Positions 2,688 to 18,343 of a DNA stretch of 18,918 bases are shown here, in pieces. The stretch is from a virus (Duplodnaviria; Heunggongvirae; Uroviricota; Caudoviricetes). The stretch spans positions 1-18,918 of IMG/VR virus record IMGVR_UViG_2698536485_000019. One strand, written 5' to 3'. The notes under the pieces are model-generated. The model saw only the letters and a list, made by a program, of their open reading frames with translations. It did no database searches and was not told where the DNA came from. Made by a program: the position numbers and the translations under genes. Every line of letters begins with the position of its first letter. Position 1 is the first letter of the stretch.

Positions 2688-2715
2688 AAAGGCCTGCGAT
2701 TACCAGCAGGCCTTT
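2688..2715. terminator. Perfect 10-bp stem hairpin at the 3' end of the HNH endonuclease gene (terminator-like, possibly bidirectional)
   Basis: aaaggcctgc (2688-2697) / gcaggccttt (2706-2715), 8-nt loop; T-run on the plus side (tatctgttttt) and TTATTTG on the minus side. Confidence 0.5.
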
Positions 2716-3325: not shown

Positions 3326-3403
3326 AAAGAATATACTTAATAATATATACAGTAAGAACCATTAGTAACGATAACCCTGCTATTAGCTCAGTGATGTAGA
3401 TGG

Positions 3404-3673: not shown

Positions 3674-6063
3674 ACGTCAGCCCCTTGTGCATATCGTCTG
3701 CCACGCGCAGCAGGTGCATTTGATGCTGTGCAAATCTGTCTGGCTTCATCCTGGTCACATGCAACAAAGTGTCCGTTACAGAACCGCTGGTAAACCGTAC
3801 CAAGTGAGCCAAAACGGTTTTTCGTCACGATGATTTCAGCAAATGGCGCGGCGCTACTGTTCTCGTCATATACCGCTTCCCGATAGAGCATGATGATTGA
3901 GTCTGCGTCCTGTTCAATGCTTCCTGAATCACGCAAATCTGCGTTTGTCGGGCGTTTATTTGGTCGCTTCTCAACATCGCGCGAAAGCTGACTTAGGGAG
4001 ATAACTGGCGTTTTCAGGTCTTTCGCCATCGCCTTCAGGCTTCCGGAGATGTGAGCAATTGCGAGGTCGTTGCGGTCTGCTTTCGGCTTCTCAATCAGGC
4101 CAAGATAATCCGCCATGATGAGTGAGAGGTTTGGATTTTCCTGTTTGTGCCGTTCTGCGATTGAGCGTATTTCTTCGACCGATAACCGCGAGGCATCGAC
4201 TACCCATACATCCAAATCTGCAAGCTGACTCATGCCGTTAGCAACACGTGCCCAGCCTTCGTCATCCATCGATGCAGGATTTCGCAGTACGCTAACCGAC
4301 ATCCTCCCGGCGTTGGCAATGCTTCGCTCTGCAATCTGCAATGCGCTCATTTCCATTGAGAAAATCAATACCCCGCGCCGGACGTCAGAACCAGGAATAA
4401 CACGACTTGCAACGCCTTCGGCAATCTTCAGCGCCAGTTCCGTATTGTGCGTAACGATGTAATCCGTTGTCACATAGAGATGGCTAGGATGGCTTACCAT
4501 GATGCAGAGACACTCTTCTGGCTCAACAACTTCAACCGATTTGATACCCACACCAACGTCGCCAAGCCTGTTAATCCCGAGATTTTTGCGTAAACGTGGT
4601 GAGTGAATTTGCTCTATCAAAGATGATGGCAACTTCATGCTGACCATGTGTGCATCAAGTCCGTCGTGCTTCTCTCCTTTGTACGTGTAAACTATTCCCG
4701 TCCTGCTGGATTCTTTGGCGGTTCCACCTAAAGATCTAACAAGCCTTACTAATCCTTTAGCTAATTTCTGACTGGATGAACTAAAGCGGATGCATCCGGA
4801 CTTCTCAACCCAGCCATCTGTCTCGAGAAGGCCAGTTAAAACACCGGTACGTATTTCTTTGCTAGCACTAAAAATTTCTGCTGGGATTTCCTTCTCGGAC
4901 GCACCTTTCCCGATCACCCCAATGCCACGTAGTTTGTCCAATAGTGGGTTCTTCTGGCCTTTTTGGTTGCTTATCAAATAATCATTCTCTCCTACCTTAA
5001 CCAGTCGCAATGGTGCAATTGCATCACTCATGCGGCTCAGGACATATTCTTCCGAGTTGGTGAATTTGATGCCTTTTATCAACGAACCGTCACCAAGTAG
5101 AGCCCCAATAACCCAACCATCAAGGGGAATATTTTTACCAAAGTCTCCGGTCAAGGATGGCACTCTTATTCTTCCCTGATAACGTGTTTTTTGTAGCATC
5201 CCAGCCAGCGCATCAGTATCAACAACGCGTTTACCAGTAAATCTTGATGATGAAATTTCCCATAAGTGGTTGTCGGCACATTTCACGCTACGTCCGTCTT
5301 CAAAGGTGACTAAATATGTGAATTTCTTCCCTTGTGGGAAGACGCCAATTACCTCCGAAGGAAGCCCGTCTATTGACGCGATGCGATCGCCAATTTTGAC
5401 TTCTCCGTGAGTAGTCCAGGTGCCATCTGCAAGTAAAATCCCTTCGCTTAGCGCCATTGCTTTCCCCATACCAGGACGAGCAGCGATTATCACCAGGTCT
5501 TCTGCGTTCATCCCTCCGGTGATGGCGTCAAGTTCTTCGATTCCGGTCTTCAGGGTATCTGACTCTTCTCCGTTCCTCAGACGCCTGTCAAGCGTGTCAG
5601 TGTAGTCAGTGATGATTTCCCCTAACCGTACAGGTTTAACCTCGTCACGGGGCTTTCTGATGGCTGAGAGACGTTTTACAAGTTCATCCATCGCCTGACT
5701 CGATGCGTCGATGGTTCCGCTTTGGATTGGTTCACGCATTTCATCCATGATTTCCAGCACCAGACGGCGGTGATAGTTATCCGCGACCATTCCGGCATAT
5801 CCCTTCAGGTTTGCGGCACTCGGGCAGTTTTTGCTGGTCATCAGGATTGACGTGAAATGCTCCTCTCCGCACGCCTCGGCAACCATCAGCGCGTCGATTA
5901 GGTTTCTGTTTCGCGCCTGCTTACGGATAACCTCGAAGGCTTTCCGGTAGAGCGGAATTGAAAACGCCTCCGGCTCCAGCGTTGCCAGAACGTCGCTGGC
6001 AGTTGGCGTTAATCCACCAATCAGCAGGCCACCGATAACGCTCGCTTCGATATCCTGTCTCAT
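3670..6063 (-). CDS. DnaB-family replicative helicase (P22 gp12-like) interrupted by an intein
   Basis: 797-aa ORF. N-terminal domain with ...[18 protein letters not shown]..., Walker A AARPGMGK then a ~339-aa insertion, resuming [10 protein letters not shown]... with typical DnaB C-terminal motifs. Start overlaps the O-like gene stop (ATGA). Confidence 0.85.
4444..5460 (-). mobile_element. Intein with LAGLIDADG homing-endonuclease domain inserted at the helicase P-loop (GMGK | T)
   Basis: Helicase residues 202-540. Begins [14 protein letters not shown] (Ala, not Cys/Ser), block B ...[19 protein letters not shown]-like motifs [13 protein letters not shown] and [11 protein letters not shown], block [20 protein letters not shown], block G YIVTHN followed by +1 Thr, which restores GK-T of Walker A after excision. 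Confidence 0.75.
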
Positions 6064-7007
6064 GCAATCCCCCTGTCTGCAAACTTCCCTTCCCGGACTC
6101 CCGTTAACGAGTCTTCTCTCAGCAGGTAATCAAAATCTGCCGTCCAGCCCGTGTCGTTGTCTCCGAAGTAAAACGGCTTGGCCTGATGCACAAACGCCCT
6201 GACATACGCTCTGAAACCGTCCACGTTTGGCGTTTTCAGTTGCGGGATGATTTTCTTCAGGCGGCGTTTGCGTTTCTCGTTGACCGCAACAGCATGTGGA
6301 AGTCTGTCACCGACTTCGGTGTTGTAGGCGTTCAGGAAGGATTCGTAGTCGATTCGTTCTGCCTTGCGACGTTCAGGTTTAACCTGCCCATCGCCTCCCC
6401 CATTGGGGGGTAGGGGGGTATTATTTATATTCTTGTTAATACCTTCTTGTTCATGATGTGCGGTTGTTTGTGCGGCTTCATGTGCGCTTTCATGTGCGGC
6501 ATGTTCGCTGAAATCCGCGCCATTACTGGCTTCGTCATGTGCGGCATCATGTGCGGTCGTTTGTGCGGCTTCATGTGCGGGTGAATCGTCCATTTTTTGA
6601 GCATATTCATGGTAATTTGTGATGGTAATCACACGACCTTTTTGCTTCTCTCCATCAATGGTGATCATCCCCTCTTTCACAAAAACCTGAAGCATCCGCT
6701 CAACCTGATCGCGGCTTGCTGGCTTGCCATGCCTGTCGCATAACTGAAGACCTAAATCAGCTGCTGTCACAACCAGTTGACCGGGTTGCAGATGCCATTC
6801 ATGACCTTTGAAATTCGCTTTGTATGGCTTTCTGGTGGCATTCAGGAGAAGGTTTTCCCACAGGGTGCGAAGATAAACATCTTTCGCCCATGACTGTTTC
6901 AGAATGCTCCGGTACAACGGAATGTAACCAGTTTTCTGGTTCTCCATCCTGTTGCTCCTGCGCTCGTGTGCGGCGCTGAAATCGTAGATTTTTGCTGTAT
7001 TGCTCAT
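6060..7007 (-). CDS. Replication initiator, lambda O / P22 gp18-like, with iteron-containing origin inside the gene
   Basis: 315-aa ORF starting [10 protein letters not shown]... (P22 gp18-like N-terminus, from memory); the central His/Ala-rich repetitive segment is encoded by the iteron array; directly upstream of the helicase gene. Confidence 0.75.
6418..6600. repeat. Putative replication origin: iteron array (about 7 copies of a (T/C)(A/T)TGTGCGG core at ~12-bp spacing) plus adjacent AT-rich segment
   Basis: Repeated catgtgcgg / tttgtgcgg units across 6445-6600; AT-rich stretch ggtattatttatattcttgttaatacc at 6418-6450 on the transcription-downstream side, as in lambda ori. Confidence 0.65.
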
Positions 7008-7009
7008 AA

Positions 7010-7282
7010 CTACCTGCCTTGACGAAAGACCTTAAGAACATCGTTAAACTGACTTACGGATATGTCTTCTTTGAGCAGCTTTTCCAGAAATGCGTTTGGA
7101 ATGAACGTATATCCCTCCTCTTTTGGTAGAGACGGGAGCAACGCCCTCGCCTCAGCCTTCAGAAGCTCAGTTCTGGCAACTTTCACAAAAGAGATTTGAG
7201 TTCTTTCATCAATGGAACGAAGGAAGCGCAAACGCTTAGCTTCTTTGTGTGTATCAGGTGGATTAAAGCCTTTGTTTCGCAT
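7010..7282 (-). CDS. Hypothetical small protein between cII and O
   Basis: 90-aa ORF from the internal ATG at 7282 (RBS GAGGT upstream); stop abuts the O-like start. The longer six-frame call would overlap cII. Confidence 0.5.
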   Translation of the reverse strand: MRNKGFNPPDTHKEAKRLRFLRSIDERTQISFVKVARTELLKAEARALLPSLPKEEGYTFIPNAFLEKLLKEDISVSQFNDVLKVFRQGR

Positions 7283-7304
7283 ATAATTACCTCGCTGGAT
7301 GTTG

Positions 7305-7604
7305 TTAAAATTCCATTTGTATTTGATCAGAACGCTCGGTCTTGCACACCGGGCGTTTTTTATTGGTGAGTCCATCAAGCGCATACTTAAAAGCCCTGCT
7401 AATCGGACTGATGTCTGATGCCATTCCGAAAGCACACAAGACCGAAGCAATAAACCTCCAGTCCGTTCTGCTTATCTTCGATTCATGACAGCCAATCATC
7501 TTTGCCAGACCGCGCTGGGTAAGCGTTGACAGGTTGATGAGTAAATCTGTTTCTGCGCGATCAATTTCTCGCTGTGTTAGCTTGCTGTAACTTGCTTGTG
7601 CCAT
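7305..7604 (-). CDS. cII: CII-family transcriptional activator (P22 C1-like)
   Basis: 99-aa ORF ending ...NKKRPVCKTERSDQIQMEF, like the lambda CII C-terminus ...NKKRPAATERSEQIQMEF (from memory); sits downstream of cro and nutR. Confidence 0.8.
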   Translation of the reverse strand: MAQASYSKLTQREIDRAETDLLINLSTLTQRGLAKMIGCHESKISRTDWRFIASVLCAFGMASDISPISRAFKYALDGLTNKKRPVCKTERSDQIQMEF

Positions 7605-7628
7605 TTGTTAATTTTCCTATATTGATAT

Positions 7629-7657
7629 ATAGCGGCACACCCAGTGGATTTGCCGCT
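7629..7657 (-). terminator. tR1-like hairpin between nutR and cII
   Basis: 7-bp stem agcggca / tgccgct with a 13-nt loop, followed on the minus strand by AUAUAU; weak as an intrinsic terminator, lambda tR1 is Rho-dependent. Confidence 0.3.
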
Positions 7658-7664
7658 GATGTTT

Positions 7665-7706
7665 GCTCACCCGGTTAGAGGTGAAAGGCCAGAACTGTTA
7701 AAGAGC
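7665..7706 (-). promoter_or_regulatory. nutR (boxA + boxB)
   Basis: Minus-strand boxA GCTCTTTAACA (7706..7696) and boxB hairpin TCACCTCTAACCGGGTGA (7684..7665); same boxA and loop CTAACC as the nutL copy. Confidence 0.7.
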
Positions 7707-7713
7707 AATTTAC

Positions 7714-7899
7714 TTATGCCGCTTGGCGGTAAGCACTTTCTTGATACTTCAGGGCGCCAGCTGTAACGATTTCCAATCGATAGGCGTCTTTCTCTGGGAT
7801 AACTTCTTTCCACTGAGAGACTGCTGCATCGCTAATGCCTAGTGCTTTAGCAACAGCACGCTGGGTTCCGAAGTGGTCAATAACATCTTTTTTGTACAT
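7714..7899 (-). CDS. cro: Cro repressor (P22-type)
   Basis: 61-aa translation MYKKDVIDHFGTQRAVAKALGISDAAVSQWKEVIPEKDAYRLEIVTAGALKYQ... matches P22 Cro as I recall it; divergent from the repressor gene. Confidence 0.85.
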   Translation of the reverse strand: MYKKDVIDHFGTQRAVAKALGISDAAVSQWKEVIPEKDAYRLEIVTAGALKYQESAYRQAA

Positions 7900-7913
7900 A
7901 GACTCGCTCCGAA

Positions 7914-7979
7914 ATTAAAGAACACTTAAATTATCCACCAAAGGATTCTTAAGTCAAGTTTATTTAAGATGTCTTAACT
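7914..7979. promoter_or_regulatory. OR region: three 18-bp operators (7914-7931, 7937-7954, 7962-7979) with PR and PRM
   Basis: Three sites fitting ANTNAAG-N4-CTTNANT (attaaagaacacttaaat, accaaaggattcttaagt, atttaagatgtcttaact). PR on the minus strand: -35 TTGACT (7957..7952), 17-bp spacer, -10 ATAATT (7934..7929). Confidence 0.7.
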
Positions 7980-8630
7980 ATGAATACACAACTGATGGGT
8001 GAGCGTATTCGCGCTCGCAGAAAAGAACTCAAGATTAGGCAGGCTGCCCTTGGCAAGATGGTTGGCGTGTCTAATGTTGCTATTTCCCAATGGGAGCGAT
8101 CTGAAACTGAGCCCAATGGCGAAAACCTATTGGCCTTAGCCAAGGCTTTGCAGTGCTCCCCTGATTACCTGTTGAAAGGAGAGGATAGTCTTTCAAACAT
8201 TGCCTATCACAGCAGGCATGATCCAAGAGGTTCGTATCCTCTAATTAGTTGGGTAAGCGCAGGATGTTGGATGGAAGCTGTAGAGCCATATCATAGGCGT
8301 GCAATAGATAACTGGTACGACACAACGGTAGATTGTTCTGAAGACTCTTTTTGGCTCGACGTTAAAGGTGATTCAATGACTGCCCCGGCAGGACTGAGTA
8401 TTCCTGAAGGGATGATTATTCTCGTCGACCCAGAAGTCGAACCACGTAATGGAAAGCTGGTAGTCGCCAAACTTGAAGGAGAAAACGAGGCGACATTCAA
8501 AAAGTTAGTTATTGATGCCGGTAGAAAATTCCTGAAACCACTCAATCCACAATACCCAATGATTGAAATCAATGGGAACTGTAAAATCATTGGCGTTGTC
8601 GTTGATGCCAAGCTAGCAAACCTTCCTTAA
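7980..8630 (+). CDS. cI: Prophage repressor CI (P22 c2-type, HTH + S24 LexA-like autopeptidase domain)
   Basis: 216-aa translation MNTQLMGERIRARRKELKIRQAALGKMVGVSNVAISQWERSETEPNGENLL... with C-terminal S24 motifs (GDSM, KLVVAKL); matches P22 C2 as I recall it. Confidence 0.9.
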   Translation: MNTQLMGERIRARRKELKIRQAALGKMVGVSNVAISQWERSETEPNGENLLALAKALQCSPDYLLKGEDSLSNIAYHSRHDPRGSYPLISWVSAGCWMEAVEPYHRRAIDNWYDTTVDCSEDSFWLDVKGDSMTAPAGLSIPEGMIILVDPEVEPRNGKLVVAKLEGENEATFKKLVIDAGRKFLKPLNPQYPMIEINGNCKIIGVVVDAKLANLP

Positions 8631-8652
8631 GGGGCTTTCGCCCCTTTTTTAT
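8631..8652 (+). terminator. Rho-independent terminator after the repressor gene
   Basis: aggggc-tttc-gcccct followed by tttttta immediately after the cI stop. Confidence 0.6.
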
Positions 8653-8684
8653 TTCCCGTTAAAAATCAAAGACAAACTAAATTC

Positions 8685-8738
8685 GCGCCCATAAAATTAA
8701 GTTTTCTTCAAAAATGCACTTGACCAACAAATTAAGAG
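8685..8738 (+). promoter_or_regulatory. OL operators and pL promoter
   Basis: Operator-like sites aaattaagttttcttcaa (8685-8702) and aattaagaggtcttaaat (8720-8737); -35 TTGACC (8710-8715), 17-bp spacer, -10 TAAATT (8733-8738). Confidence 0.6.
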
Positions 8739-8794
8739 GTCTTAAATTTAAGCCGTCAGCAGGAGGCTGGAAGCCAAACGGAACAGATTGGCAG

Positions 8795-8834
8795 GCTCTT
8801 TAACATCGACGAACTCTCAACCTAACCGTTGAGA
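8795..8834 (+). promoter_or_regulatory. nutL (boxA + boxB)
   Basis: boxA GCTCTTTAACA (8795-8805); boxB hairpin TCTCAAC-CTAACC-GTTGAGA (8815-8834); upstream of N. Confidence 0.7.
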
Positions 8835-8944
8835 CCAGAACTTGAGTGGTTTTGGGGATGGCGCGAATTGCAGCTGCAAGACAGCGATCGAGAAGATAAG
8901 CACCTCGACGCGTCATGCGCCAAAGCCACTTAAAGGAGACCATC

Positions 8945-9250
8945 ATGGTAACCATTGTCTGGAAAGAATCCAAAGGTACGGCAAAAAGCCGCTACAAAGC
9001 TCGCAGAGCAGAACTTATTGCCGAGCGACGCAGTAATGAAGCACTGGCGCGAAAAATTGCGCTAAAGCTCTCTGGTTGCGTCAGAGCAGACAAAGCAGCA
9101 TCACTAGGAAGCCTTTGCTGCAAGAAGAAAGAAGAAGTTGTTCGAAAAAATAGAAGTATTTATTACAAGGATTCAAACCCATTAGGAAACAAAATACATG
9201 CAGTCCAAAAAATAAAATTGTACAGTAAACTACCGTACGGTGCTTATTGA
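8945..9250 (+). CDS. N: Antiterminator N (phage-21-type arginine-rich motif) with a divergent AT-rich 3' end
   Basis: ATG at 8945 after AAGGAG; MVTIVWKESKGTAKSRYKARRAELIAERR... matches the phage 21 N ARM as I recall it; located between nutL and the pL-operon accessory genes. Confidence 0.75.
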   Translation: MVTIVWKESKGTAKSRYKARRAELIAERRSNEALARKIALKLSGCVRADKAASLGSLCCKKKEEVVRKNRSIYYKDSNPLGNKIHAVQKIKLYSKLPYGAY

Positions 9251-9252
9251 GT

Positions 9253-9591
9253 ATGCTTATGGTGAAAAAGACTATTTATGTTAATCCTGACCGCGGACAA
9301 AACAGAAAAGTATCTGATAGAGGTCTTACATCTCGAGACAGGAGGAGAATAGCGAGATGGGAAAAGAGGATAGCATATGCATTAAAAAACGGTGTAACAC
9401 CTGGATTTAATGCTATAGATGACGGTCCTGAATATAAGATTAATGAAGACCCAATGGACAAAGTTGACAAAGCATTAGCAACACCATTTCCTCGCGATGT
9501 CGAAAAAATTGAAGATGAAAAATATGAGGATGTAATGCACAGAGTTGTTAATCACGCTCACCAACGAAATCCAAATAAAAAATGGTCATAG
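9253..9591 (+). CDS. Hypothetical protein (basic N-terminal half, acidic C-terminal half); accessory moron
   Basis: ORF in an AT-rich segment; first ATG 3 nt after the N stop (start uncertain, no clear SD); followed by its own terminator. No family recognised. Confidence 0.45.
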   Translation: MLMVKKTIYVNPDRGQNRKVSDRGLTSRDRRRIARWEKRIAYALKNGVTPGFNAIDDGPEYKINEDPMDKVDKALATPFPRDVEKIEDEKYEDVMHRVVNHAHQRNPNKKWS

Positions 9592-9592
9592 C

Positions 9593-9613
9593 CCACTTCG
9601 GTGGTTTTTTTAT
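9593..9613 (+). terminator. Rho-independent terminator (short stem, UUCG loop, U-run)
   Basis: cccac-ttcg-gtgg followed by ttttttta directly after the 9253-9591 ORF. Confidence 0.5.
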
Positions 9614-9620
9614 TGGCTGA

Positions 9621-9716
9621 ACTAACCGAATTTATTACAGCAAGCCACGCAGTGAAATGGGTGTGACTTGTGTTGGTCGCCAGAAAATGAAATTAGGCAG
9701 CAAACCACTTATTTGA
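9621..9716 (+). pseudogene. Displaced 3' remnant of an N gene (encodes ...NRIYYSKPRSEMGVTCVGRQKMKLGSKPLI-stop)
   Basis: Short open frame with no start codon; it parallels the C-terminus of the intact N gene 400 bp upstream (RSIYY...QKIKLYSKLP) and, as far as I recall it, the phage 21 N C-terminus. Confidence 0.55.
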
Positions 9717-9727
9717 GAGGAATTAAT

Positions 9728-10351
9728 ATGTCATCAATCCGCTTAACTACGAGAATGAAAGAGGAAATCGCTCGTAACGCTTTAATTAAGTCCGGGGTGT
9801 TCACTGAACTTGAAGAAGTAACAAAGTTAAAGAACCAGCTTGCACTTGACGCCAGAGTTATTGCGTTTGGCGGTAAAAAGAAAACTGAGGAAGTGGATCA
9901 GTTATCATCCAAGTTGGTAGCTATAAGTGAAGAACTTGGAAAGATGGGATGTTCATTTTACTCATACGATGTTAGTTCTACTTCAATTTATCTGACTGTA
10001 TCTGGCAGAAGGGTTGGATGGCATTCATATGGGGAAGACGGCAACGGCAAAGATATATTGCTCCCTACTCCGATCAAAGATAAATGCATGTTTGACGCAG
10101 AACACGAAATAACAAAAAGGTTTGATGAAATCTGCGCATTGCAACAAAAACTTGAAGCCAAGAAAAAGGATATCGAATCAAATGTATGGGCTGCTTTGAA
10201 CTCAGTCACAACAGTTAAGCGACTTATTGAAGTTTGGCCTGAAAGCAAAGAATTGCTACCAAAAGAAGCAGATAAAGCAAGTACAGCACTTCCTGCTTTA
10301 CGGGTAGAAGATTTGAATAAGATGATTGGACTTCCTTCCGAGGCCGCATAG
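9728..10351 (+). CDS. Hypothetical soluble protein, 207 aa (accessory gene in the N-cIII slot)
   Basis: ATG at 9728 with GAGAGG RBS at 9715-9720; coherent ORF with no hydrophobic segments; own terminator at the stop. No family recognised. Confidence 0.6.
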   Translation: MSSIRLTTRMKEEIARNALIKSGVFTELEEVTKLKNQLALDARVIAFGGKKKTEEVDQLSSKLVAISEELGKMGCSFYSYDVSSTSIYLTVSGRRVGWHSYGEDGNGKDILLPTPIKDKCMFDAEHEITKRFDEICALQQKLEAKKKDIESNVWAALNSVTTVKRLIEVWPESKELLPKEADKASTALPALRVEDLNKMIGLPSEAA

Positions 10352-10366
10352 TCGGCCTTTATTTTT
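10341..10366 (+). terminator. Rho-independent terminator
   Basis: aggccg-catagt-cggcct followed by ttattttt, overlapping the stop codon of the 9728-10351 ORF. Confidence 0.6.
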
Positions 10367-10485
10367 GGCATAAACAACAGAATAAATACTGCACTGTGTA
10401 TTCATTCCAACGAGTGAATACACGGAGCAATGTCGCTCGTAACTAAACAGGAGCCGACTTGTTCTGATTATTGGAAATCTTCTTT

Positions 10486-10512
10486 GCCCTCCAATGTGAG
10501 GGCGATTTTTTA
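10486..10512 (+). terminator. Rho-independent terminator within the noncoding gap upstream of ea10
   Basis: gccctc-caatgt-gagggc followed by gatttttta. Confidence 0.6.
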
Positions 10513-10531
10513 TCTGTGAGGATATGAACAG

Positions 10532-10900
10532 ATGTCAAACATCAAAAAATACATCATTGATTACGACTGGAAAGCATCAATAGAAATTGAAATCGACCAT
10601 GACGTAATGACAGAGGAAAAACTTCACCAGATTAATAATTTCTGGTCAGACTCTGAACACCGACTCAATAAACACGGCTCTGTATTAAATGCTGTATTAA
10701 TCATGCTGGCGCAACATGCTCTGCTTATAGCAATTTCAAGCGACTTAAATGCATATGGTGTTGTGTGTGAGTTCGACTGGAATGATGGAAATGGTCAGGA
10801 AGGATGGCCTCCAATGGATGGTAGCGAAGGAATAAGAATTACCGATATCGATACATCAGGAATATTTGATTCAGATGATATGACTATCAAAGCCGCCTGA
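10532..10900 (+). CDS. Ea10-like protein (lambda ea10/ssb position), function unknown
   Basis: 122-aa ORF immediately upstream of cIII, the position and length of lambda ea10 as I recall; sequence identity not verified. Confidence 0.55.
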   Translation: MSNIKKYIIDYDWKASIEIEIDHDVMTEEKLHQINNFWSDSEHRLNKHGSVLNAVLIMLAQHALLIAISSDLNAYGVVCEFDWNDGNGQEGWPPMDGSEGIRITDIDTSGIFDSDDMTIKAA

Positions 10901-10972
10901 GCGCGGCGTTACCGCATACCAATAACGCTTCACTCGAGGCGTTTTTCGTTATGTATAAATAAGGAGCACACC

Positions 10973-11113
10973 ATGCAATATGCCATTGCAGGGTGGCCTG
11001 TTGCTGGCTGCCCTTCCGAATCTTTACTTGAGCGAATCACCCGTAAATTACGTGACGGATGGAAACGCCTTATCGACATACTTAATCAGCCAGGAGTTCC
11101 AAAAAATGGATAA
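10973..11113 (+). CDS. cIII: CIII (inhibitor of FtsH-mediated CII degradation)
   Basis: 46-aa ORF (below the six-frame track cutoff) after AAGGAG: MQYAIAGWPVAGCPSESLLERITRKLRDGWKRLIDILNQPGVPKNG, near-identical to lambda CIII as I recall it. Confidence 0.8.
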   Translation: MQYAIAGWPVAGCPSESLLERITRKLRDGWKRLIDILNQPGVPKNG

Positions 11114-11219
11114 AACACTTATGGCTATCCAGACTAAATTCACTATCGCCACTTTTATTGGCGATGAAAAGATGTTTCGTGAAGCCGTAGAAGCCTACAG
11201 AAAATGGAGGTCAAAATGA
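11106..11219 (+). CDS. kil: Kil (host cell-division inhibitor)
   Basis: 37-aa ORF MDKTLMAIQTKFTIATFIGDEKMFREAVEAYRKWRSK overlapping the cIII stop; resembles lambda Kil (from memory). Confidence 0.7.
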   Translation: MDKTLMAIQTKFTIATFIGDEKMFREAVEAYRKWRSK

Positions 11220-11404
11220 TTCCGGTAGAACTGGCGAAAACCCCAGAGTTAAGTCGATTAAAAAGAGAGTATCACATTGCTGAGGCTCGTTACTGGCGTA
11301 AAGCGGGAGATAAATCAAAGAAACAACTTTGCTTATGGCAGGCACAAAGAGAGCGCATGAATGAGCGCGAATTTCTTTCCTCCCCATCCGAATTACCATT
11401 CTGA
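11216..11404 (+). CDS. Hypothetical small basic protein (62 aa)
   Basis: ATG at 11216 overlapping the kil stop (ATGA), GGAGG RBS at 11205-11209; occupies the position lambda gam would take. Confidence 0.45.
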   Translation: MIPVELAKTPELSRLKREYHIAEARYWRKAGDKSKKQLCLWQAQRERMNEREFLSSPSELPF

Positions 11405-11412
11405 GGTGAATT

Positions 11413-12069
11413 ATGGGTACTGCGACATTAATACTCGGTGAGTCTGGCACCGGAAAATCAACCAGTTTAAGAAACTTACCACCAGAAAAAACATTAATCA
11501 TACAGTGCATAAACAAACCGCTACCATTCCCATCAAGTGATTGGGTTAAAATAAGCAAGGAAAACAATAACGGGAACATATACAGAACAGATAATACTGA
11601 AAATATTGTAAGGGCACTAATTAATGCTCCGCATGAAATTGTAGTTATTGATGATTATCAGGCTGTGATGGTTAACGAACTAATGGGTAAATGCAATGAG
11701 AGAGGATATGACAAATTTACCTCGATAGGGAAAAACGCATGGGATGTGTTCAGGGCTGCTGGTGAAGGTGCAGACACTCGGAGAGTTTATATTCTGGCAC
11801 ACACGCAAACTGATGATTTTGGCTATACACGAATGAAAACCGTCGGAAAACTAGTCGATTCGACACTTGTTCCTGAAGGTTATTTCACTATCGTGTTAAG
11901 AACTCACGTACAGAACGGAAAATACTCATTTTCCACCCAGACAAACGGGAGTGATTGTTGTAAAAGTCCGGTTGGGATGTTTGATAGTCAGTTTATTGAT
12001 AATGATTTGTACGAAGTAGATAAAAAAATATGCTCTTACTATGGGTTTGAAAAAAATGAGACGTCTTGA
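11413..12069 (+). CDS. Sak4-like RecA-core ATPase (phage single-strand annealing recombinase family)
   Basis: 218-aa ORF with N-terminal Walker A GESGTGKST and Walker B-like VVIDDY; size and position (replacing exo/bet) fit Sak4-type recombinases of P22-like phages. Confidence 0.6.
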   Translation: MGTATLILGESGTGKSTSLRNLPPEKTLIIQCINKPLPFPSSDWVKISKENNNGNIYRTDNTENIVRALINAPHEIVVIDDYQAVMVNELMGKCNERGYDKFTSIGKNAWDVFRAAGEGADTRRVYILAHTQTDDFGYTRMKTVGKLVDSTLVPEGYFTIVLRTHVQNGKYSFSTQTNGSDCCKSPVGMFDSQFIDNDLYEVDKKICSYYGFEKNETS

Positions 12070-12661
12070 GGTATCCGGCGAGAGATTTGGCAATTTAGTT
12101 GTTATTGGTGATGCAGGAATGCGTGGTACTCAAAGGTTGGTAAACTGTGTGTGTGACTGCGGAGTAGTTTGTGTTAAACAGCTTGGCAACCTCCGTTCAG
12201 GGCACACAAGAAGTTGTGGTTGCTCACGCTCATCTACAACAAAAGCAAGAAAAAACAAACATGGCATGTATGGAACACCAACATACAAGTCATGGTCTTC
12301 AATGTTAACAAGATGCTTCAATGAAAGAAATAGTAAATACAAACACTATGGAGGAAGAGGAATAACTGTTTGTGAACGGTGGCTGAACTTTAAATTATTT
12401 TTCGCTGATATGGGAAAAAGACCTGACGGAACTACATTGGGAAGAATTGATAACAATGGTAATTACGAACCATCAAATTGCGAATGGCAGAAAAGTATCG
12501 AGCAAGCAAGAAATAAGAGTAATACCGTATTATTTAAATTCAATGGAGTGCTGGCAACAATTTCAGAGCACTGCGAAAAAACTGGATTAAACCCAAGCAC
12601 GGTAAGAAGCAGGATTTACACATATCATTGGTCTGTAGACAAGGCCTTATCAAAAGGATAA
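12041..12661 (+). CDS. Cys-rich HNH-family (variant) nuclease-like protein
   Basis: N-terminal Cys cluster CVCDCG...SCGC; C-terminal RIDNNGNYEPSNCEWQKSIEQARN parallels the HNH motif IDHVNGN...NLRLATEEQNARN of the 2714-3325 endonuclease, with the first His replaced by Asn. Start ambiguous (ATG at 12041 or 12056). Confidence 0.5.
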   Translation: MGLKKMRRLEVSGERFGNLVVIGDAGMRGTQRLVNCVCDCGVVCVKQLGNLRSGHTRSCGCSRSSTTKARKNKHGMYGTPTYKSWSSMLTRCFNERNSKYKHYGGRGITVCERWLNFKLFFADMGKRPDGTTLGRIDNNGNYEPSNCEWQKSIEQARNKSNTVLFKFNGVLATISEHCEKTGLNPSTVRSRIYTYHWSVDKALSKG

Positions 12662-12665
12662 AAGC

Positions 12666-13253
12666 ATGAGCAACGTAATTTTTACTTATAACGAAGAAGC
12701 AGCACTGACCGCAGGGCAAGGTGGTTTTATTAACGAAACTGGCGCTCACATAATTACCATTACTGAAGCAGAACTCAAGCAATCAGAAAAAGGAGCCAAA
12801 TTTATTGAGTTTTCTGGAGAATCCGACGACGGACGTAAAATCCAGTATCTTAGCGTCTGTGTTCAGAAAAATGACGGCACGGAAAACAAATTTGGCGCAA
12901 ATGTCGTTCACGCCATGATGGGGTGTGCCGGGATTGGACAATTAACGCAACATATGGTTTCCGCCAGTAAATTTGTTGCACCTGAATTTCATGGAAAGAA
13001 AATCGGGTTAGTGCTCCAGAAAGTATTAACCACAAACAAAAAGACTGGCGCAGACAGCTACCAGATGGAAATACGCATCCCGTTTATTGCACAAACAGGT
13101 CAAACCCTTAAAGAAAAGGCAGAAGGCAAGCAACCAGAAACTATCGCCAACATGGTTGCCAGCCTCAAAGATAAAGACAATCGCTCTAAAAACGTAAGCC
13201 ATAATCATGCAGATGATTATGGTTACAGCCAGAACGATTACCCTCCTTTCTGA
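12666..13253 (+). CDS. SSB-like protein (probable partner of Sak4) with acidic C-terminal tail
   Basis: 195-aa ORF ending ...HADDYGYSQNDYPPF, reminiscent of the SSB C-terminal tail ...DDDIPF; adjacent to the Sak4-like gene. Confidence 0.5.
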   Translation: MSNVIFTYNEEAALTAGQGGFINETGAHIITITEAELKQSEKGAKFIEFSGESDDGRKIQYLSVCVQKNDGTENKFGANVVHAMMGCAGIGQLTQHMVSASKFVAPEFHGKKIGLVLQKVLTTNKKTGADSYQMEIRIPFIAQTGQTLKEKAEGKQPETIANMVASLKDKDNRSKNVSHNHADDYGYSQNDYPPF

Positions 13254-13276
13254 TTACTGAAAATAAGGCTCCCATT

Positions 13277-13573
13277 ATGCCAGCGCCTCTGTATGGTGCG
13301 GATGACCCGCGCAACTGCTCCGGTAGCTCCAAGGCGGAGGTGCTGGAAAATATCAAAAACAATTTCGACGCGTTTCTTGCTCTGACACCAGAAACAAAAG
13401 CAGAACGGATGTACCGACGCGATATACAACTCGCGCTAAAACAGGAGAAGGACCGAACAAACGAAACAGCAATGAGACCGTTGCGAAAAGCGACAATAGA
13501 CAAATTCCCTGAATATATCGACCCGCGCCTGCGTAATTACCGCTCACGCTATGGCGCTATCAGTAATGACTGA
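13277..13573 (+). CDS. Hypothetical protein
   Basis: 98-aa ORF with AAGG upstream; same strand and tight spacing within the pL operon. Confidence 0.5.
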   Translation: MPAPLYGADDPRNCSGSSKAEVLENIKNNFDAFLALTPETKAERMYRRDIQLALKQEKDRTNETAMRPLRKATIDKFPEYIDPRLRNYRSRYGAISND

Positions 13574-13583
13574 GGAATTTACC

Positions 13584-13874
13584 ATGAAAACAATGAAGCT
13601 AAACATCGACCTCGGAAAATACGTTATTACCGGAACCAAACACGACCTGATTCTTAGTGAAAGAGGAATTATCAAAGAAGGCGAGAATGCAGGGAAAGAA
13701 ACACTAAGCCGTATCGGTTATTACAGCAAGTTTGAGCATCTGGTTAAAGAATTATGCAACCGTGAAATCATGTTATCTCAGGCGCAGACGCTACAGGATA
13801 TTCAGCAACATATCGAGAATTTAGGTGTGTCACTTAGCATGGCTATTGACCAGTTCGTGGAGAGTAAATCATGA
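13584..13874 (+). CDS. Hypothetical protein
   Basis: ATG at 13584 preceded by TGAGGAA; 96 aa; stop overlaps the next start (ATGA). Confidence 0.5.
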
Positions 13875-14038
13875 GAGGACTTGCATACAATCCCGGCATT
13901 CTTCCAGCAGAAATGATTATTCGCCAACGCGTAAAGCCAATGCCATCGAGAGAGGAATTGCTTAAGAGAAATTCTTTTCCTTCAGTGAATCAAAACAAAT
14001 ATCTGAATGCGATGTGGCGTAAAGGAGGCAAGCAGTGA
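13871..14038 (+). CDS. Hypothetical small protein (55 aa)
   Basis: Below the six-frame cutoff; ATG overlaps the previous stop and its stop overlaps the GTG start of the next gene (translational coupling pattern). Confidence 0.35.
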
Positions 14039-14493
14039 GCGAAATTAACTATAAAGAACTGCGCGAGGCGGCGAAACAGGCAACGCAAGATGAATGGGTA
14101 GCATATATTTTGCCGGGCCATAACGGCATTTATCCTGCGCGCACGTCTGAGGGTAGGCATTGCGGATACTTTATTGACTGGCCTGGTACTGATGGACAGA
14201 GGAACGCTAGTGCCAATGCCCGTTATATCGCGGCTATCCCACCAAAAGTTGCGCTGGACCTCCTAGGCGAAATTAAGCGCCTGGAGGACAAAAATATTGA
14301 TGCCATGTGCCAAATTGCAGAGCTGGAGAGCAATCGCGCGGCGCTGGCGGCGGAGCATGGTATTCAGATTGCAATAAATGAACTGCTTGCTCTGGCCCCG
14401 CGTCTGGATAAACGAGCGGTGGATGCACTCTCTGTGGCTGTGGAGCACCTGTGTAAACTGATTAAGAAGGAGGCAGTCAGTGAGCAAAATTAA
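14035..14493 (+). CDS. Ead/Ea22-like protein
   Basis: GTG start; N-terminus [16 protein letters not shown]...W and ...[16 protein letters not shown] is paralogous to the next gene; the family name is from memory. Confidence 0.55.
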
Positions 14494-15154
14494 TTACCAG
14501 GCACTGCGTGAGGCGGCAGAGAAAGCAACGTGGGGAGACTGGGACTCATATAAACCACACCGTGGCGCACGTGGTTATGAGGTCCGACTAAGTAGTCAGG
14601 CCATTGCGCAACACGTCCTGAAAAACAACGCTGAATTTATTGCTGCCTTTAATCCAAAGATTGCTTTGGCACTACTGGATGAACGGGAAAGAAACCAGCA
14701 ATACATCAAACGCCGCGACCAGGAGAACGAGGATATTGCGCTAACGGTAGGGAAGCTGCGTGTTGAGCTGGAAGGCAAAGACAGCAAAATAGCCAATCTT
14801 ACCGCCGAACGCGATGCTCTTCGTGAAGGTGAGATGGGCGACGCTAGGCATAGCAACACACGGGCCGCAGCTGATATCTACTTCCAACTGGTCGAGGAGT
14901 GCGAAATTCCTGCTGGCCGTTCTCTGGTCGAGTACGTTGACGATATGCGCGAGAAGCTGGAAGCCGCAGAGAAGCGCATTGCTGAGCTGGAGTTGCGGGA
15001 GGTTGTGCTTCCGCAATGCTATAGCATGTTGCATCGCGTCGATTTTGACGAGCCTTACCACACTGAAATGGTTTACAGGCAGCATCAGGTTCTTGAGGCA
15101 CTGCACAACGCTGGAATAAACGTCACCGAAGCAGGTAAAGGAGAGGCATCATGA
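14480..15154 (+). CDS. Ead/Ea22-like protein with coiled-coil C-terminal region
   Basis: GTG start after AAGGAGG; N-terminus [20 protein letters not shown] and ...AEFIAAFNPKIALALL matches the upstream paralog. Confidence 0.55.
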   Translation: MSKINYQALREAAEKATWGDWDSYKPHRGARGYEVRLSSQAIAQHVLKNNAEFIAAFNPKIALALLDERERNQQYIKRRDQENEDIALTVGKLRVELEGKDSKIANLTAERDALREGEMGDARHSNTRAAADIYFQLVEECEIPAGRSLVEYVDDMREKLEAAEKRIAELELREVVLPQCYSMLHRVDFDEPYHTEMVYRQHQVLEALHNAGINVTEAGKGEAS

Positions 15155-15678
15155 GCACTATCACAAGAGAATGGCTGCAGCAGACTATCAACGATTATGA
15201 AAGCGTTCGTGATGAGCTTCCTTTCGGGCTTGATGATTACCAGGGGAATATCCTGGCTGCCCTGCGTATCGCACTGGCATCGCTGGAAGCAGAGCCGGTG
15301 GCGTGGAAGGTAACATTCACGCAAATTGACCGTGAATATAACACGTTCACTGGTATGTATTCTGACAAAGCAGAAGTCGAACGGTGGGTGCGTCTGCATA
15401 AAGCATGTAATTTTCGGGCAGATATAACACCGCTTTATACCGCCAAGCCAGTGCCGGTAACTCCGGATGGTTGGATAAGCTGTAGTGAGCGAATGCCAGA
15501 AATTAGACAAACAGTTATTGGATGGAATGAATATGCAGTTAGACAATGCGTATATACAAGGAATGAATATGCCAAGACACAGAAAGGCAGAGAGCCAAGG
15601 TTTGAAACCTTAACTGGTATATGGCATGGAGTAACCCACTGGATGCCGCTACCAGAACCGCCGCAGGAGGTTAATTGA
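15151..15678 (+). CDS. DUF551-like prophage protein
   Basis: 175-aa ORF with C-terminal W-x-SCSERMPE...GVTHWMPLPEPP, resembling the DUF551 motif common in lambdoid prophages (from memory); RBS AAGGAGAGG. Confidence 0.55.
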   Translation: MSTITREWLQQTINDYESVRDELPFGLDDYQGNILAALRIALASLEAEPVAWKVTFTQIDREYNTFTGMYSDKAEVERWVRLHKACNFRADITPLYTAKPVPVTPDGWISCSERMPEIRQTVIGWNEYAVRQCVYTRNEYAKTQKGREPRFETLTGIWHGVTHWMPLPEPPQEVN

Positions 15679-15962
15679 TGGACTCCTTCGCGAAATATAC
15701 GATTATTGACTGGATAGCATTCCTTCAGGTTTTGCTCATCTGGTTTTATTTGGCTTATAGGAGTGGACAGTGGATTGTCAGTGTAGCCTGTAGCAAGGGA
15801 TGGCGTTGGTGGAACCGAAAGAATAAAAAAGCACTGGCCTTGGATTCATTTTACGAAGCATTCAATCTTAACAGCCTTCAGCCTGGTTCTGTCGTTGTAG
15901 TCACCACTCAAAGCGGCATGACGATACAAATTCACAAGCCAAAGGAGGAAGGTCGTGGCTAA
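15678..15962 (+). CDS. Small membrane protein
   Basis: ATG at 15678 after AGGAGG; hydrophobic segment YTIIDWIAFLQVLLIWFYLAY. Confidence 0.45.
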   Translation: MDSFAKYTIIDWIAFLQVLLIWFYLAYRSGQWIVSVACSKGWRWWNRKNKKALALDSFYEAFNLNSLQPGSVVVVTTQSGMTIQIHKPKEEGRG

Positions 15963-16239
15963 CCTGCAACTTGCAGTCAAAGGTGAATACTTCGATGCCA
16001 TGATTCGCGGAGAGAAAACAGAAGAGTATCGCCTGTGTAATGACTACTGGAATAAGCGAATTATGTTCCGGGAGTATGACCGCCTGATTATCACAAAGGG
16101 ATATCCGAAGCGCGACGACTCCAGCCGCAGAATTAACGTCCCGTATGACGGATATAAAATCAAGACAATCACACATACACACTTCGGAGATAAACCGGTA
16201 AAGGTGTTCGCGATAAAGGTGAATATCGGCAATGAATAA
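15955..16239 (+). CDS. ASCH/PUA-like domain protein (tentative)
   Basis: GTG start after AAGGAGG; N-terminal pattern LQLAVKGEYFDAMIRGEKTEEYR resembles ASCH-fold proteins; weak assignment. Confidence 0.4.
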   Translation: MANLQLAVKGEYFDAMIRGEKTEEYRLCNDYWNKRIMFREYDRLIITKGYPKRDDSSRRINVPYDGYKIKTITHTHFGDKPVKVFAIKVNIGNE

Positions 16240-16274
16240 CAATCCTCGCACTCGCGGGGATTTCTTTTATCTGA

Positions 16275-16298
16275 ACTCGCTACGGCGAGTTTTGTTTT
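16275..16298 (+). terminator. Rho-independent terminator
   Basis: actcgc-tacg-gcgagt followed by tttgtttt. Confidence 0.55.
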
Positions 16299-16310
16299 AT
16301 GGAGATGATT

Positions 16311-16610
16311 ATGGCCTGTTCAACATTCAACCCTCTAACGTTACAGAAATACCAGCCAGACCCTGAAGATTTATGCTCACTGTGTGGCGGAAATCATGGC
16401 AAAGCCGCCATGATCGAATGTAAAGACAAAATCCACATTTGCCTTAATTGCGTTGATGTCCTCGTTGATATCAAAAATGAGAGAGAAGATAAAAAGCGTA
16501 GCGAGGCTGTTCGCGCCTTAGATTCATGGATGCGAGATGGGTATAGTGCCGCGCAAATTTATGACTTAGCAATATCAAAAGGCGAAATACCAGGAGTGCG
16601 CATCGAATAA
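16311..16610 (+). CDS. Hypothetical Cys-rich (zinc-ribbon-like) protein
   Basis: CSLCGG...CLNC pairs; start taken at the ATG with GGAG 6 nt upstream (in-frame ATGs also at 16299 and 16305). Confidence 0.45.
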   Translation: MACSTFNPLTLQKYQPDPEDLCSLCGGNHGKAAMIECKDKIHICLNCVDVLVDIKNEREDKKRSEAVRALDSWMRDGYSAAQIYDLAISKGEIPGVRIE

Positions 16611-16652
16611 GACGTAACCAATATTCGAATTGAAGAACTGAAAGAACACCAA

Positions 16653-16675
16653 GCCGCCTGATGGCGGTTTTTTCT
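16653..16675 (+). terminator. Rho-independent terminator upstream of xis
   Basis: gccgcc-tgat-ggcggt followed by tttttc. Confidence 0.55.
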
Positions 16676-16680
16676 TACAC

Positions 16681-16980
16681 ATGCAGAGGCAACTTATGCG
16701 CGAGTTAGTAAACCAACATAACCATGGCATTCAGCCAGTCATCACACCTGTTGTACAGATAAATGCGAATGAATGGGTAACACTGGAGCTTTTAATGGCT
16801 GTAACAGGCCTGAGAAAAGGAACAATATTACGCGCCAGGGACAGTGCGTGGATGAACGGCAGAGAATATAAACAAATCGCCCCCGACGGAACGCCAAAGA
16901 AAAACAGCGAATGTCTCTATCATCTTCCTACCATCAACACTTGGATCAAAAACCAACCCTTACCATCTCAGGATGTTTAA
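16681..16980 (+). CDS. xis: Excisionase-like protein (Xis)
   Basis: 99-aa ORF directly upstream of int; segment EWVTLELLMAVTGLRKGTILRARDSAWMNGREYKQ resembles the lambda Xis fold pattern (W..., GREY); start uncertain. Confidence 0.5.
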   Translation: MQRQLMRELVNQHNHGIQPVITPVVQINANEWVTLELLMAVTGLRKGTILRARDSAWMNGREYKQIAPDGTPKKNSECLYHLPTINTWIKNQPLPSQDV

Positions 16981-17032
16981 TTCTTGTCCATAAGAGTATA
17001 ACCTGAGCGTGCTCTTGGACGCAGGAGGAACA

Positions 17033-18343
17033 ATGGCGAATTCAGCCTATCCAGCCGGCGTTGAAAATCACGGAGGAAAACTCCGAATAACGTTTAAGTA
17101 CAGGGGTAAACGAGTGCGCGAAAATCTTCGCGTGCCCGATACACCGAAAAACAGAAAGATCGCTGGTGAGTTAAGGGCTTCGGTCTGCTTTGCAATCAGA
17201 ACAGGAACGTTTGATTATGCCGATCGATTCCCTGACTCACCTAACCTGAAGCTATTTGGCCTGGTAAAAAAAGATATCACCGTCGGTGAACTGGCACAGA
17301 AATGGCTTACTCTGAAAGCAATGGAAATCGGTAGTAACGCCTTAAATCGTTATCAATCAGTGATGAAAAATATGCTACCGAGGCTTGGTCCTGGCAGGCT
17401 GGCGTCATCGATTACAAAAGAAGATCTGCTGTTTATCAGGAAAGATTTACTGACCGGGGAAAAGGGAAGCAGGAAAACCAGCACGTCCCGAAAAGGAAGA
17501 ACCGTACCCACAGTGAACTATTACATGACAACAACAGCCGGAATGTTCAGCTTTGCCGCCGAAAACGGGTATCTGGAGAAAAACCCGTTTAATTCAATAA
17601 CACCGCTGAGGAAATCAAAACCAGTGCCGGATCCACTGACCAGAGATGAGTTTAGCCGTCTCATTGATGCCTGCCATCATCAACAGACCAAAAACCTCTG
17701 GACAGTGGCTGTTTTTACAGGGATGCGACACGGTGAAATTGCCGCACTTGCATGGGAGGATATCGACCTGAAAGCTGGCACGATAACAGTGCGACGAAAT
17801 TTTACAAAAATAGGTGATTTTACGCTACCAAAGACCGACGCAGGCACTAACCGGGTTATACATCTTCTGGCACCAGCAATTGAAGCACTTAAAAACCAGG
17901 CGATGCTTACTCGTCTTAGCAGGCAGCATCAGATCACTGTTCAATTACGCGAGTACGGAAGAACAATTTTGCACGAGTGCACTTTTGTTTTCTGTCCGCA
18001 AATCGTTCGCAAGAATCACAAGGCGGGTATTAACTACGCGGTAAGCTCCATCGGAGCGACATGGGATTCAGCAATAAAAAGAGCGGGTATCCGATCCCGT
18101 AAAGCGTATCAGTCACGCCATACCTATGCGTGCTGGGCTTTATCTTCCGGAGCAAACCCGACATTTATTGCATCACAGATGGGGCACTCCAGCGCCAGCA
18201 TGGTCTACAATGTTTATGGTGCATGGATGCCTGAGTGCAGCGTGACTCAAGTTGCCATGTTGAATAATGTCCTTAATGCCCGTGCCCCAGACGTGCCCCA
18301 AAGTGACCAGGAGGATGAAATAAAATTATATTTTTCAAAATGA
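17033..18343 (+). CDS. int: Tyrosine-family site-specific integrase
   Basis: ATG at 17033 after AGGAGG; catalytic-domain motifs [15 protein letters not shown]...MGHSS...VYNVYGAW (R...HxxR...Y); lies at the prophage-host junction and its stop overlaps the wrbA-frame ATG. Confidence 0.85.

Follow-up and report, generated by a model that had tools for sequence, protein, structure and literature searches.

We examined the early-left recombination region of an 18,918-nucleotide Caudoviricetes sequence (IMG/VR record IMGVR_UViG_2698536485_000019, positions 1 to 18,918; hereafter the window), in which a Cys-rich, HNH-like (His-Me finger-like) open reading frame (ORF) separates the gene for a Sak4-type ATPase from the gene for an SSB. 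The region encodes an HK620-type recombination module (hkaM, sak4, ssb, and abc2) in the early-left part of a Stx2a-converting lambdoid prophage. Across the studied region, the window is 100% identical to the Stx2a-converting phage Stx2_16002 (LC645439) and 99.9% identical to a prophage of Escherichia coli UTAK-1. The hkaM–sak4–ssb–abc2 arrangement is an already published, characterized module, and the locus is mostly ordinary: the HK620 genes hkaM, sak4 (hkaL), ssb (hkaK), and abc2 (hkaJ) occur in the same order and in the same place after cIII and kil (PMC5928155; Clark et al. 2001 annotation, AF335538). The window differs from HK620 in having a strongly diverged and chimeric Sak4 and in harboring a 201-residue ORF between sak4 and ssb, genes that overlap in HK620. 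The original prediction, made from the sequence alone, had four plus-strand ORFs in this region replacing the exo, bet, and gam genes of lambda with, among others, a Sak4-like ATPase, an HNH variant, and an SSB-like protein. The ORF coordinates confirm the four positions, and the PHROG matches and identities to HK620 bear out the replacement, although the P22/HK620 module is a better comparison than lambda. Strong homologs for all four and purifying selection on the Cys-rich ORF establish that these are genes rather than chance ORFs; PGAP labels them, in order, “hypothetical protein,” “AAA family ATPase,” “hypothetical protein,” and “hypothetical protein.” The module extends beyond the originally described interval (11216-13253) to include abc2.

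The sak4 gene (11413-12069, plus strand) encodes a 218-residue Walker A/B ATPase that matches phrog_2872, “Sak4-like ssDNA annealing protein,” over its full length at E = 3.7e-82 and is 51% identical to HK620 HkaL over 215 residues (E = 2e-80). These two matches identify the ATPase as Sak4, as had been proposed, and the profile searches did not place it in a nonrecombinase family; the Pfam AAA_24 model aligns with residues 5-166 with 24.1 bits, below its cutoff of 27. The protein has the makeup of a Sak4, that is, a small (~200-230 residues) P-loop ATPase with a Walker A motif (GESGTGKST, residues 9-17), a Walker B region (EIVVIDDY, residues 75-82), and no extra domains, and it shares 86, 82, and 66% identity with the Sak4 proteins of three related loci, L004, L005, and L009, respectively. 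HkaL is a Sak4 and a RecA-core-only protein, for which ATP-dependent binding and annealing of single-stranded DNA (ssDNA) have been shown (PMC5928155). By homology with HK620, the window Sak4 would therefore be a single-strand annealing protein, an ATPase with a RecA core only, that binds ssDNA and anneals it. Approximately 80% of sak4 genes adjoin a cognate ssb gene (PMC5928155); in the window, ssb lies 597 nucleotides downstream of sak4, with only the inserted ORF between them.

The ssb gene (12666-13253, plus strand) encodes a 195-residue protein of the HK620 HkaK type (“SSB-2”), which is 99% identical to HkaK over 195 residues, ends in an identical ...SQNDYPPF sequence, and matches phrog_743 at E = 3.3e-66. 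A Pfam search of this protein gave no match at E ≤ 0.1; HkaK has been assigned to DUF669 (PMC5928155). HkaK is a true SSB that binds ssDNA and stimulates Sak4, mainly via its last six residues, NDYPPF (PMC5928155), and the near identity to this ssDNA-binding protein, with the same tail, upholds the reading of the acidic-tailed window protein as an SSB. By analogy, we take the window SSB to be the cognate partner of Sak4, which it would stimulate through its C-terminal NDYPPF tail. RefSeq still labels this protein “hypothetical.” The Shine–Dalgarno sequence of ssb, AAGGA at 12654-12658, lies within the 3′ end of the HNH-like ORF.

The HNH-like ORF itself (plus strand) spans 12056-12661 (201 residues) from the PGAP start at 12056, or 12041-12661 (206 residues), and overlaps sak4 by 14 nucleotides; we refer to it and its close relatives as the G134 lineage. 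The larger family comprises 4,820 homologs and is present in 1,092 phage records from many host phyla, with up to three copies per genome. PHROG families labeled “HNH endonuclease,” including phrog_374, match the Cys-rich protein, in agreement with its original description as an HNH variant. The Pfam HNH and HNH_3 models match neither this protein nor any of 31 relatives, several of them even at E ≤ 10, and an NCBIfam search of the protein returned no match. A profile search of PDB sequences with the family gave two chance matches only, and a Foldseek search of the confident AlphaFold2 (AF2) model against the PDB returned no significant match, a result probably explained by the small size and multidomain makeup of the model. 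Structurally, the protein comes closest to PacI, an HNH enzyme in which a Tyr replaces the His. Relatives in BFVD bear the names HNH or homing endonuclease, or AP2; the Pfam search of the window protein gave no AP2 match, and its C terminus is helix-turn-helix (HTH)-like.

Three segments can be recognized in the AF2 model. An N-terminal Cys-rich unit (residues 13-61; 12077-12223, plus strand), with the pattern RFGxL...CxCxCG...SCGC, forms a β-rich domain in which C38, C40, and C59 are invariant and C36 and C61 nearly so; it is found in one to three tandem copies among relatives and is probably a Zn-binding module that would recognize DNA. The ββα, or HNH-like, segment (residues 131-158; 12431-12514, plus strand) reads TTLG-R135-IDNNGN-Y142-EPS-N146-CEWQKSIE-Q155-AR-N158, and consists of strands 131-135 and 147-151 followed by a helix at 152-157. 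The C-terminal HTH-like unit (12533-12652, plus strand) is made up of helices 174-181, 185-194, and 199-204, has a weak Pfam HTH_23 match (residues 172-192, E = 0.036), and is repeated in some relatives. The protein would in this way place Zn-type and HTH-type DNA-recognition units around a ββα core.

To describe the putative active site, we scored residue conservation over 143 family sequences, 70 from the window lineage (at least 55% identical) and 73 more distant. More than 15 residues are invariant over the 143 sequences; R135, Y142, N146, and N158 are conserved in all 143 and Q155 in 141. The canonical His is absent. We assign the catalytic-His position, at the C-terminal end of β-strand 1, to Arg135, since the end of strand 1 in the AF2 model, the hhalign register, the shared phrog_374 profile coordinates, and the invariance in 143/143 sequences all agree; the first His of the motif has therefore not been changed to Asn, as the original prediction had it. 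The Asn candidate, Asn138, was considered for the His position and rejected, as it is replaced by Val, Ser, Pro, or Thr in 26 of the 73 distant members (Val in 18/73). The hhalign register comes from a profile of the HNH_3-AP2 relatives of a second, canonical HNH-type gene in the window (2714-3325), which pairs G134 with D77, R135 with H78, N146 with N90, Q155 with N99, and N158 with N102; this profile–profile alignment is not significant (E = 0.22) and was used for register only, in which it agrees with the three other lines. In HNH_3 proteins, the residue aligned with position 134 is the invariant Asp of the D-H dyad, and residue 134 probably corresponds to a metal-ligand position.

The window protein thus has no match to a curated HNH profile, no catalytic His, and, with Gly134, no acidic ligand of a D-H dyad. 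PacI provides a precedent for a His-less enzyme of this fold, in which a Tyr in the inter-strand loop acts instead (PMC5714182; PMC4081073). The invariant Tyr142 is found in the putatively equivalent loop; with Arg135 at the catalytic-His position, Tyr142 may assume the role of the His, as the Tyr does in PacI. By sequence, PacI (PDB 3M7K/3LDY; His-Me finger group 20) has no detectable similarity to the HNH-like protein, from which it also differs as a homodimeric restriction enzyme of 142 residues that carries two Cys4 zinc sites.

Among named classes, the closest is IPA-HNH, the atypical HNH homing endonuclease genes of vibriophage ICP1 (gp59, gp115, and gp209; Barth, Dunham & Seed 2023, PMC10448857), and the proposed relation comes through gp59, which matches the hidden Markov model (HMM) of the HNH-like family over residues 90-162 (E = 3.6e-7, 22.9 bits) and is the sole match among 198 ORFs in 50 kb of ICP1. 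This match covers the core W..M..RC...VC..W..F...LD[K/R]...Y.P..C, with a Lys in gp59 where the window family has Arg135. IPA-HNH genes are likewise invisible to Pfam HNH_3 and seen only by more sensitive methods, and they too stand free, next to essential genes of replication or recombination and at the borders of exchanged DNA (PMC10448857). The architectures differ, in that IPA-HNH proteins are described there as having an N-terminal HNH-like and a C-terminal AP2 domain (PMC10448857), whereas in the window protein a Cys-rich unit stands at the N terminus and an HTH-like unit at the C terminus; we found no enzymatic test of an IPA-HNH protein in the available text of the same report.

Canonical HNH_3-AP2 proteins, which include the product of the 2714-3325 gene and I-HmuI (PDB 1U3E), offer a second comparison. 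The 2714-3325 protein and the HNH-like protein match the same region of the phrog_374 profile and have in common G-x-[WR]-P ... [IL]-[DG]-[HR] ... N-[LC]-R-x-A-T-x-x-[EQ]-[QN]-x-R-N, with near-identical spacing, and in both types a nuclease core is flanked by DNA-binding units. The D-H dyad is invariant in the canonical proteins, which the Pfam HNH_3 model recognizes; the HNH-like protein has G-R at these positions and is missed by that model.

We used the 218-type Sak4 to retrieve 66 loci (57-100% identical) and inspected the slot between sak4 and ssb in each. An HNH-like ORF occupies the slot in 17 loci, ssb follows sak4 directly in 45, and DUF6948 cargo is present in two; of the other two, in L071 the sak4 match is incomplete and ssb was not detected, and the contig of L070 ends <400 nucleotides from the sak4 match. 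The HNH-like gene is thus wedged between Sak4 and its SSB partner, as first noted, yet it is an optional occupant rather than a fixed part of the module (17/66 versus 45/66), and its presence is scattered over the Sak4 tree. Several lineages have come to lie in this one site. L073 and L019 are 88% identical in Sak4 and 83% identical in SSB, whereas their slot genes are only 36% identical; the slot of L047 holds a third lineage, with the three slot lineages sharing 36-43% identity. Independently acquired copies, 36-44% identical to the main lineage, are found in L073 (3609-4274) and L047 (3633-4250) in the slot and in L048 (1975-2658) upstream of sak4. In L055 (3672-4212) and L072, the slot holds a DUF6948 protein (125 residues, Pfam E = 1.4e-29) and a 60-residue Gly/Asp/Tyr-rich ORF.

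An empty site (L023), a site of the L019 type (G134), and one of the L073 type (D134) all have a single conserved ssb leader in common, and the insert always begins just past the conserved (F/Y)YG codons at the end of sak4, forming a clean indel up to that leader. We conclude that the sak4–ssb junction is a general, recurrent insertion hotspot for accessory genes, which genes of the HNH-like family have entered repeatedly. A 19-nucleotide match in HNH-less sister loci was considered as a remnant of the ORF, and hence as proof of loss, and rejected: it is part of the conserved ssb leader and is also found downstream of the unrelated L073 ORF, so gain and loss are not separable for the main lineage. 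More distant HNH-like relatives adjoin terminase or sit among replication genes. In L079 (Streptococcus phage Javan46, 1212-3594), a distant Sak4 (phrog_124), a phrog_2698 gene of unknown function, and an HNH-like member stand in a row before a helicase gene, which places the family close to a Sak4 gene in a Gram-positive phage too, an arrangement that may be due to chance.

Comparison with related Stx2a phages places the window ORF within a larger exchanged segment. HK620 and most Stx2a phages (e.g., Stx2_EH1965, L001) encode a 226-residue Sak4, the stop codon of which overlaps the start of an identical ssb, with no gene between them. Relative to these, the window carries an exchanged cassette of ~1.2 kb (11468-12664) that contains most of the sak4-218 allele and the HNH-like ORF; the flanks outside the cassette are 95.6-100% identical to Stx2_EH1965, and the sequence diverges inside it. 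The left edge falls at about 11465-11470, in sak4 codon 18-19, just past the Walker A motif, and the right edge at 12664, two bases before the ssb ATG. Codons 1 to ~18 of sak4 (11413-11470, through Walker A) are HK620/Stx-type DNA and the remainder is of the divergent 218 type, and the window Sak4 is therefore a natural chimera joined at the P-loop. The HNH-like gene came in on this one ~1.2-kb cassette along with most of a foreign sak4 allele. A cassette with its right edge at the ssb start codon would be the pattern expected from break repair and co-conversion of the neighboring gene.

We consider it probable, if well short of certain, that the inserted ORF is a free-standing passenger of the homing-endonuclease type. 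Such behavior is suggested by the optional slot, the independent lineages, the varied gene contexts, the varying number of DNA-binding units, and the many host phyla, and the ORF exhibits two features of homing genes, presence/absence polymorphism at a fixed site and horizontal spread with independent arrivals. As a passenger, the Cys-rich ORF would not be core to the recombination machinery and would belong to a large and atypical branch of the HNH (His-Me finger) superfamily that lacks the His and is related to IPA-HNH; nuclease activity would be retained and homing would be the means of transfer. Several observations weigh against this interpretation. All six lineage members sampled via the protein itself are in the sak4–ssb slot with overlapping junctions, and the lineage diverges in step with sak4 (sak4/ORF identities of 86/81, 82/70, and 66/62%), with ssb freely exchanged. 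Purifying selection on the ORF is about as strong as that on sak4 and ssb; the ratio of nonsynonymous to synonymous substitution rates (dN/dS) is 0.10 relative to the 81%-identical L004 homolog, with a value of 0.06 for sak4 in the same window–L004 comparison. The G134 lineage accordingly looks like a long-term resident rather than a recent invader, which fits a gene that contributes to the module, and ordinary mosaic recombination at conserved sequences could account for the cassette boundaries as well. In addition, Gly134 is found in 70/70 sequences of the window lineage, with Asp or Glu at this position in 70 of the 73 more distant members; if residue 134 is a metal ligand, the G134 lineage may have altered or lost catalysis while still being useful to the phage. 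The pairwise identities of Sak4 and the HNH-like protein correlate with r = 0.64, which is compatible with vertical descent or with joint transfer, and long residence and repeated transfer of the pair are not separable, because co-conversion would likewise produce apparent co-divergence of sak4 and the insert.

Several of these observations also bear on the proposal, which we regard as unlikely, though less so than the other rivals, that the HNH-like protein is a working member of the module, a nuclease or nickase that makes or processes ends or gaps for Sak4 and SSB, as Exo does for Beta in lambda. The residence of all six protein-sampled members in the slot, the parallel divergence with sak4, and the purifying selection all speak for it, as does the tight packing, in which the ORF overlaps sak4 by 14 nucleotides and contains the ribosome-binding site of ssb within its 3′ end, so that translation is probably coupled. 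A nuclease-type gene embedded in a lambdoid Rec module is, moreover, a recognized category: a survey of such modules lists HNH nucleases among four nuclease types, takes those that are tightly packed to be likely true members, and describes the HK620-type module as having no nuclease gene of its own (PMC12315714). The published example, ES18 gp47, was compared and rejected as the same kind of gene, as it is an unrelated canonical, His-containing HNH protein that scores about 2 bits against the family HMM and occupies a different slot, between ssb and abc2. The 45 of 66 related modules that have no such ORF also argue against membership, since the 218-type Sak4 evidently works without it, and in HK620, sak4 and ssb alone gave the full recombineering activity of the module (PMC5928155). 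That unrelated lineages of the family, and also a DUF6948 gene, fill this slot speaks for a site that tolerates insertions rather than for a functional need; relatives of the ORF occur in unrelated contexts, and its own product lacks the canonical catalytic Asp and His.

Two further proposals concern the G134 lineage in particular, and we think both improbable. The lineage could be a domesticated, catalytically dead derivative that retains DNA binding. Of the four positions that pair with the catalytic set of HNH_3, three differ (D to G134, H to R135, and N to Q155), and the Gly that is fixed throughout the lineage contrasts with the Asp134 kept by the independent copies in L073, L047, and L048; Asp137 shows no sign of compensating, being present in 56/70 sequences of the lineage versus 59/73 elsewhere, with no rise in conservation. 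The Zn-type and HTH-type DNA-binding units are kept, purifying selection implies that the protein is used, and inactive DNA-binding His-Me fingers are known, for example, the SMAD MH1 domain (PMC5714182). Against loss of catalysis stands the conservation of R135, Y142, N146, Q155, and N158, as expected of a working active site, and the metal-ligand role of residue 134 derives from the nonsignificant alignment noted above.

Alternatively, the lineage might be a domesticated partner of the 218-type Sak4, such as a nuclease or a DNA-binding factor that acts only on Sak4–ssDNA filaments, by analogy with Ref of phage P1, and this we hold to be just as improbable as a dead derivative. Ref is an HNH nuclease that cuts DNA only where RecA is bound. 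A Sak4-dependent partner stays under consideration because the lineage is found only next to the 218-type Sak4 clade and diverges in parallel with it, is probably coupled to it in translation, evolves under purifying selection, and has a fixed Gly134. Far less credible than any of these, and already disfavored by the selection analysis, is a decaying mobile-gene remnant that no longer functions. The block is indeed rare, with a single occurrence among 50,697 phage records and two among 5,426 complete E. coli genomes, and the ORF is lost or absent in many related modules; however, the reading frame is intact in every copy examined, and the low dN/dS, the more than 15 invariant residues in 143 sequences, and the confident AF2 model all speak for a functional protein. 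A free-standing passenger remains our preferred explanation for the inserted ORF.

At the two ends of the module lie hkaM and abc2. The hkaM homolog (11216-11404, plus strand) encodes a 62-residue protein of unknown function with 98% identity to HK620 HkaM and a phrog_1723 match at 2e-33; the longest ORF in this region begins at 11204 (66 residues), and a Pfam search of the 62-residue protein gave no match. In HK620, expression of just sak4 and ssb brought recombineering back to the level given by all four genes (Hutinet et al. 2018, PMC5928155), and HkaM is therefore not required for Sak4 recombineering in that phage; Abc2 had no effect in the same assay (PMC5928155). The abc2 gene (13277-13573, plus strand) encodes an anti-RecBCD protein that matches Pfam Anti-RecBCD_p2 (PF11043) over its full length (1.5e-35; 121.7 bits against a curated cutoff of 25) and phrog_656 (5e-45), is annotated by PGAP as “phage anti-RecBCD protein,” and is 61% identical to its HK620 homolog (hkaJ). 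By homology with HK620, Abc2 would redirect the host RecBCD enzyme. The 62-residue ORF is therefore real, as originally called, but its placement in a “gam position” is unnecessary: it is an HkaM orphan and need not be a Gam analog, because a dedicated anti-RecBCD gene lies immediately downstream in the module. The arf–erf–abc1–abc2 genes of P22 hold the same position in the early-left operon and have abc2 in common with the window, although P22 uses Erf and not Sak4. Related 218-type Sak4 modules in L009 (5365-6036) and L080-L084 (about 3800-4300) have a DnaQ-like exonuclease (phrog_192) or Sipho_Gp157 in place of abc2.

The genes surrounding the module are those of a lambdoid prophage, and on the plus strand they follow the order cI, N-like, Nun-like, Nmad5, DUF2528, cIII, kil, the four ORFs, abc2, several small genes, xis, and int. 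The cI gene of the immunity region is found at 7980-8630, and the Nun-like transcription termination factor (9247-9591) comes directly after the N-like gene. It is followed in the early-left operon by a protein with nucleotide modification associated domain 5 (Nmad5; 9668-10351, Pfam E = 3.7e-71). The cIII gene (10973-11113) is supported by Pfam Lambda_CIII (9.4e-31), 98% identity to HK620 cIII, and the PGAP annotation as CIII. The kil gene (11106-11219; Pfam Lambda_Kil 5.6e-21, 97% identity to HK620 Kil) has its true start at an internal ATG, with coordinates taken from the PGAP annotation of the UTAK-1 prophage; int (17009-18343) lies after xis. All of these genes are on the plus strand. Two adjacent overlapping ORFs at 14035-14493 and 14480-15154 match the same two PHROG families (phrog_368 and phrog_250) and have similar N termini, which suggests that a gene of unknown function was duplicated in tandem.

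On the minus strand, the gene at 2714-3325 is of the canonical homing-endonuclease type (Pfam HNH_3 2.9e-15, AP2 1.6e-6), and the prophage therefore contains two different free-standing genes of HNH type. It lies in an AT-rich patch (GC about 0.38) between ninB (2006-2458) and replication genes. A minus-strand ORF of 175 residues at 1482-2009 matches only positions 53-230 of a 345-position DNA methyltransferase PHROG profile and may be a truncated methylase gene.

A Sak4–SSB module in place of lambda Red has already been published and tested for HK620, and its recurrence here adds little. The public annotation of the prophage can nonetheless be corrected, given that SSB and the HNH-like protein are still “hypothetical” and Sak4 only an “AAA family ATPase.” Modestly useful beyond this is the recognition of a very large phage family labeled “HNH endonuclease” that lacks the catalytic His, conserves an invariant Arg and Tyr instead, and is detected by no Pfam model; we found no report of this family having been tested. 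If active, the family would extend PacI-type Tyr chemistry to thousands of phage genes, and a Ref-like role for the G134 lineage, if true, would equip a RecA-core annealing protein with a dedicated accessory for targeted DNA cutting. The locus is also a concrete example of a nuclease-type gene that marks the edge of an exchanged block, one that swapped the recombinase allele itself, and it bears on recombination modules and mobile nuclease genes as drivers of mosaicism in Shiga-toxin phages.

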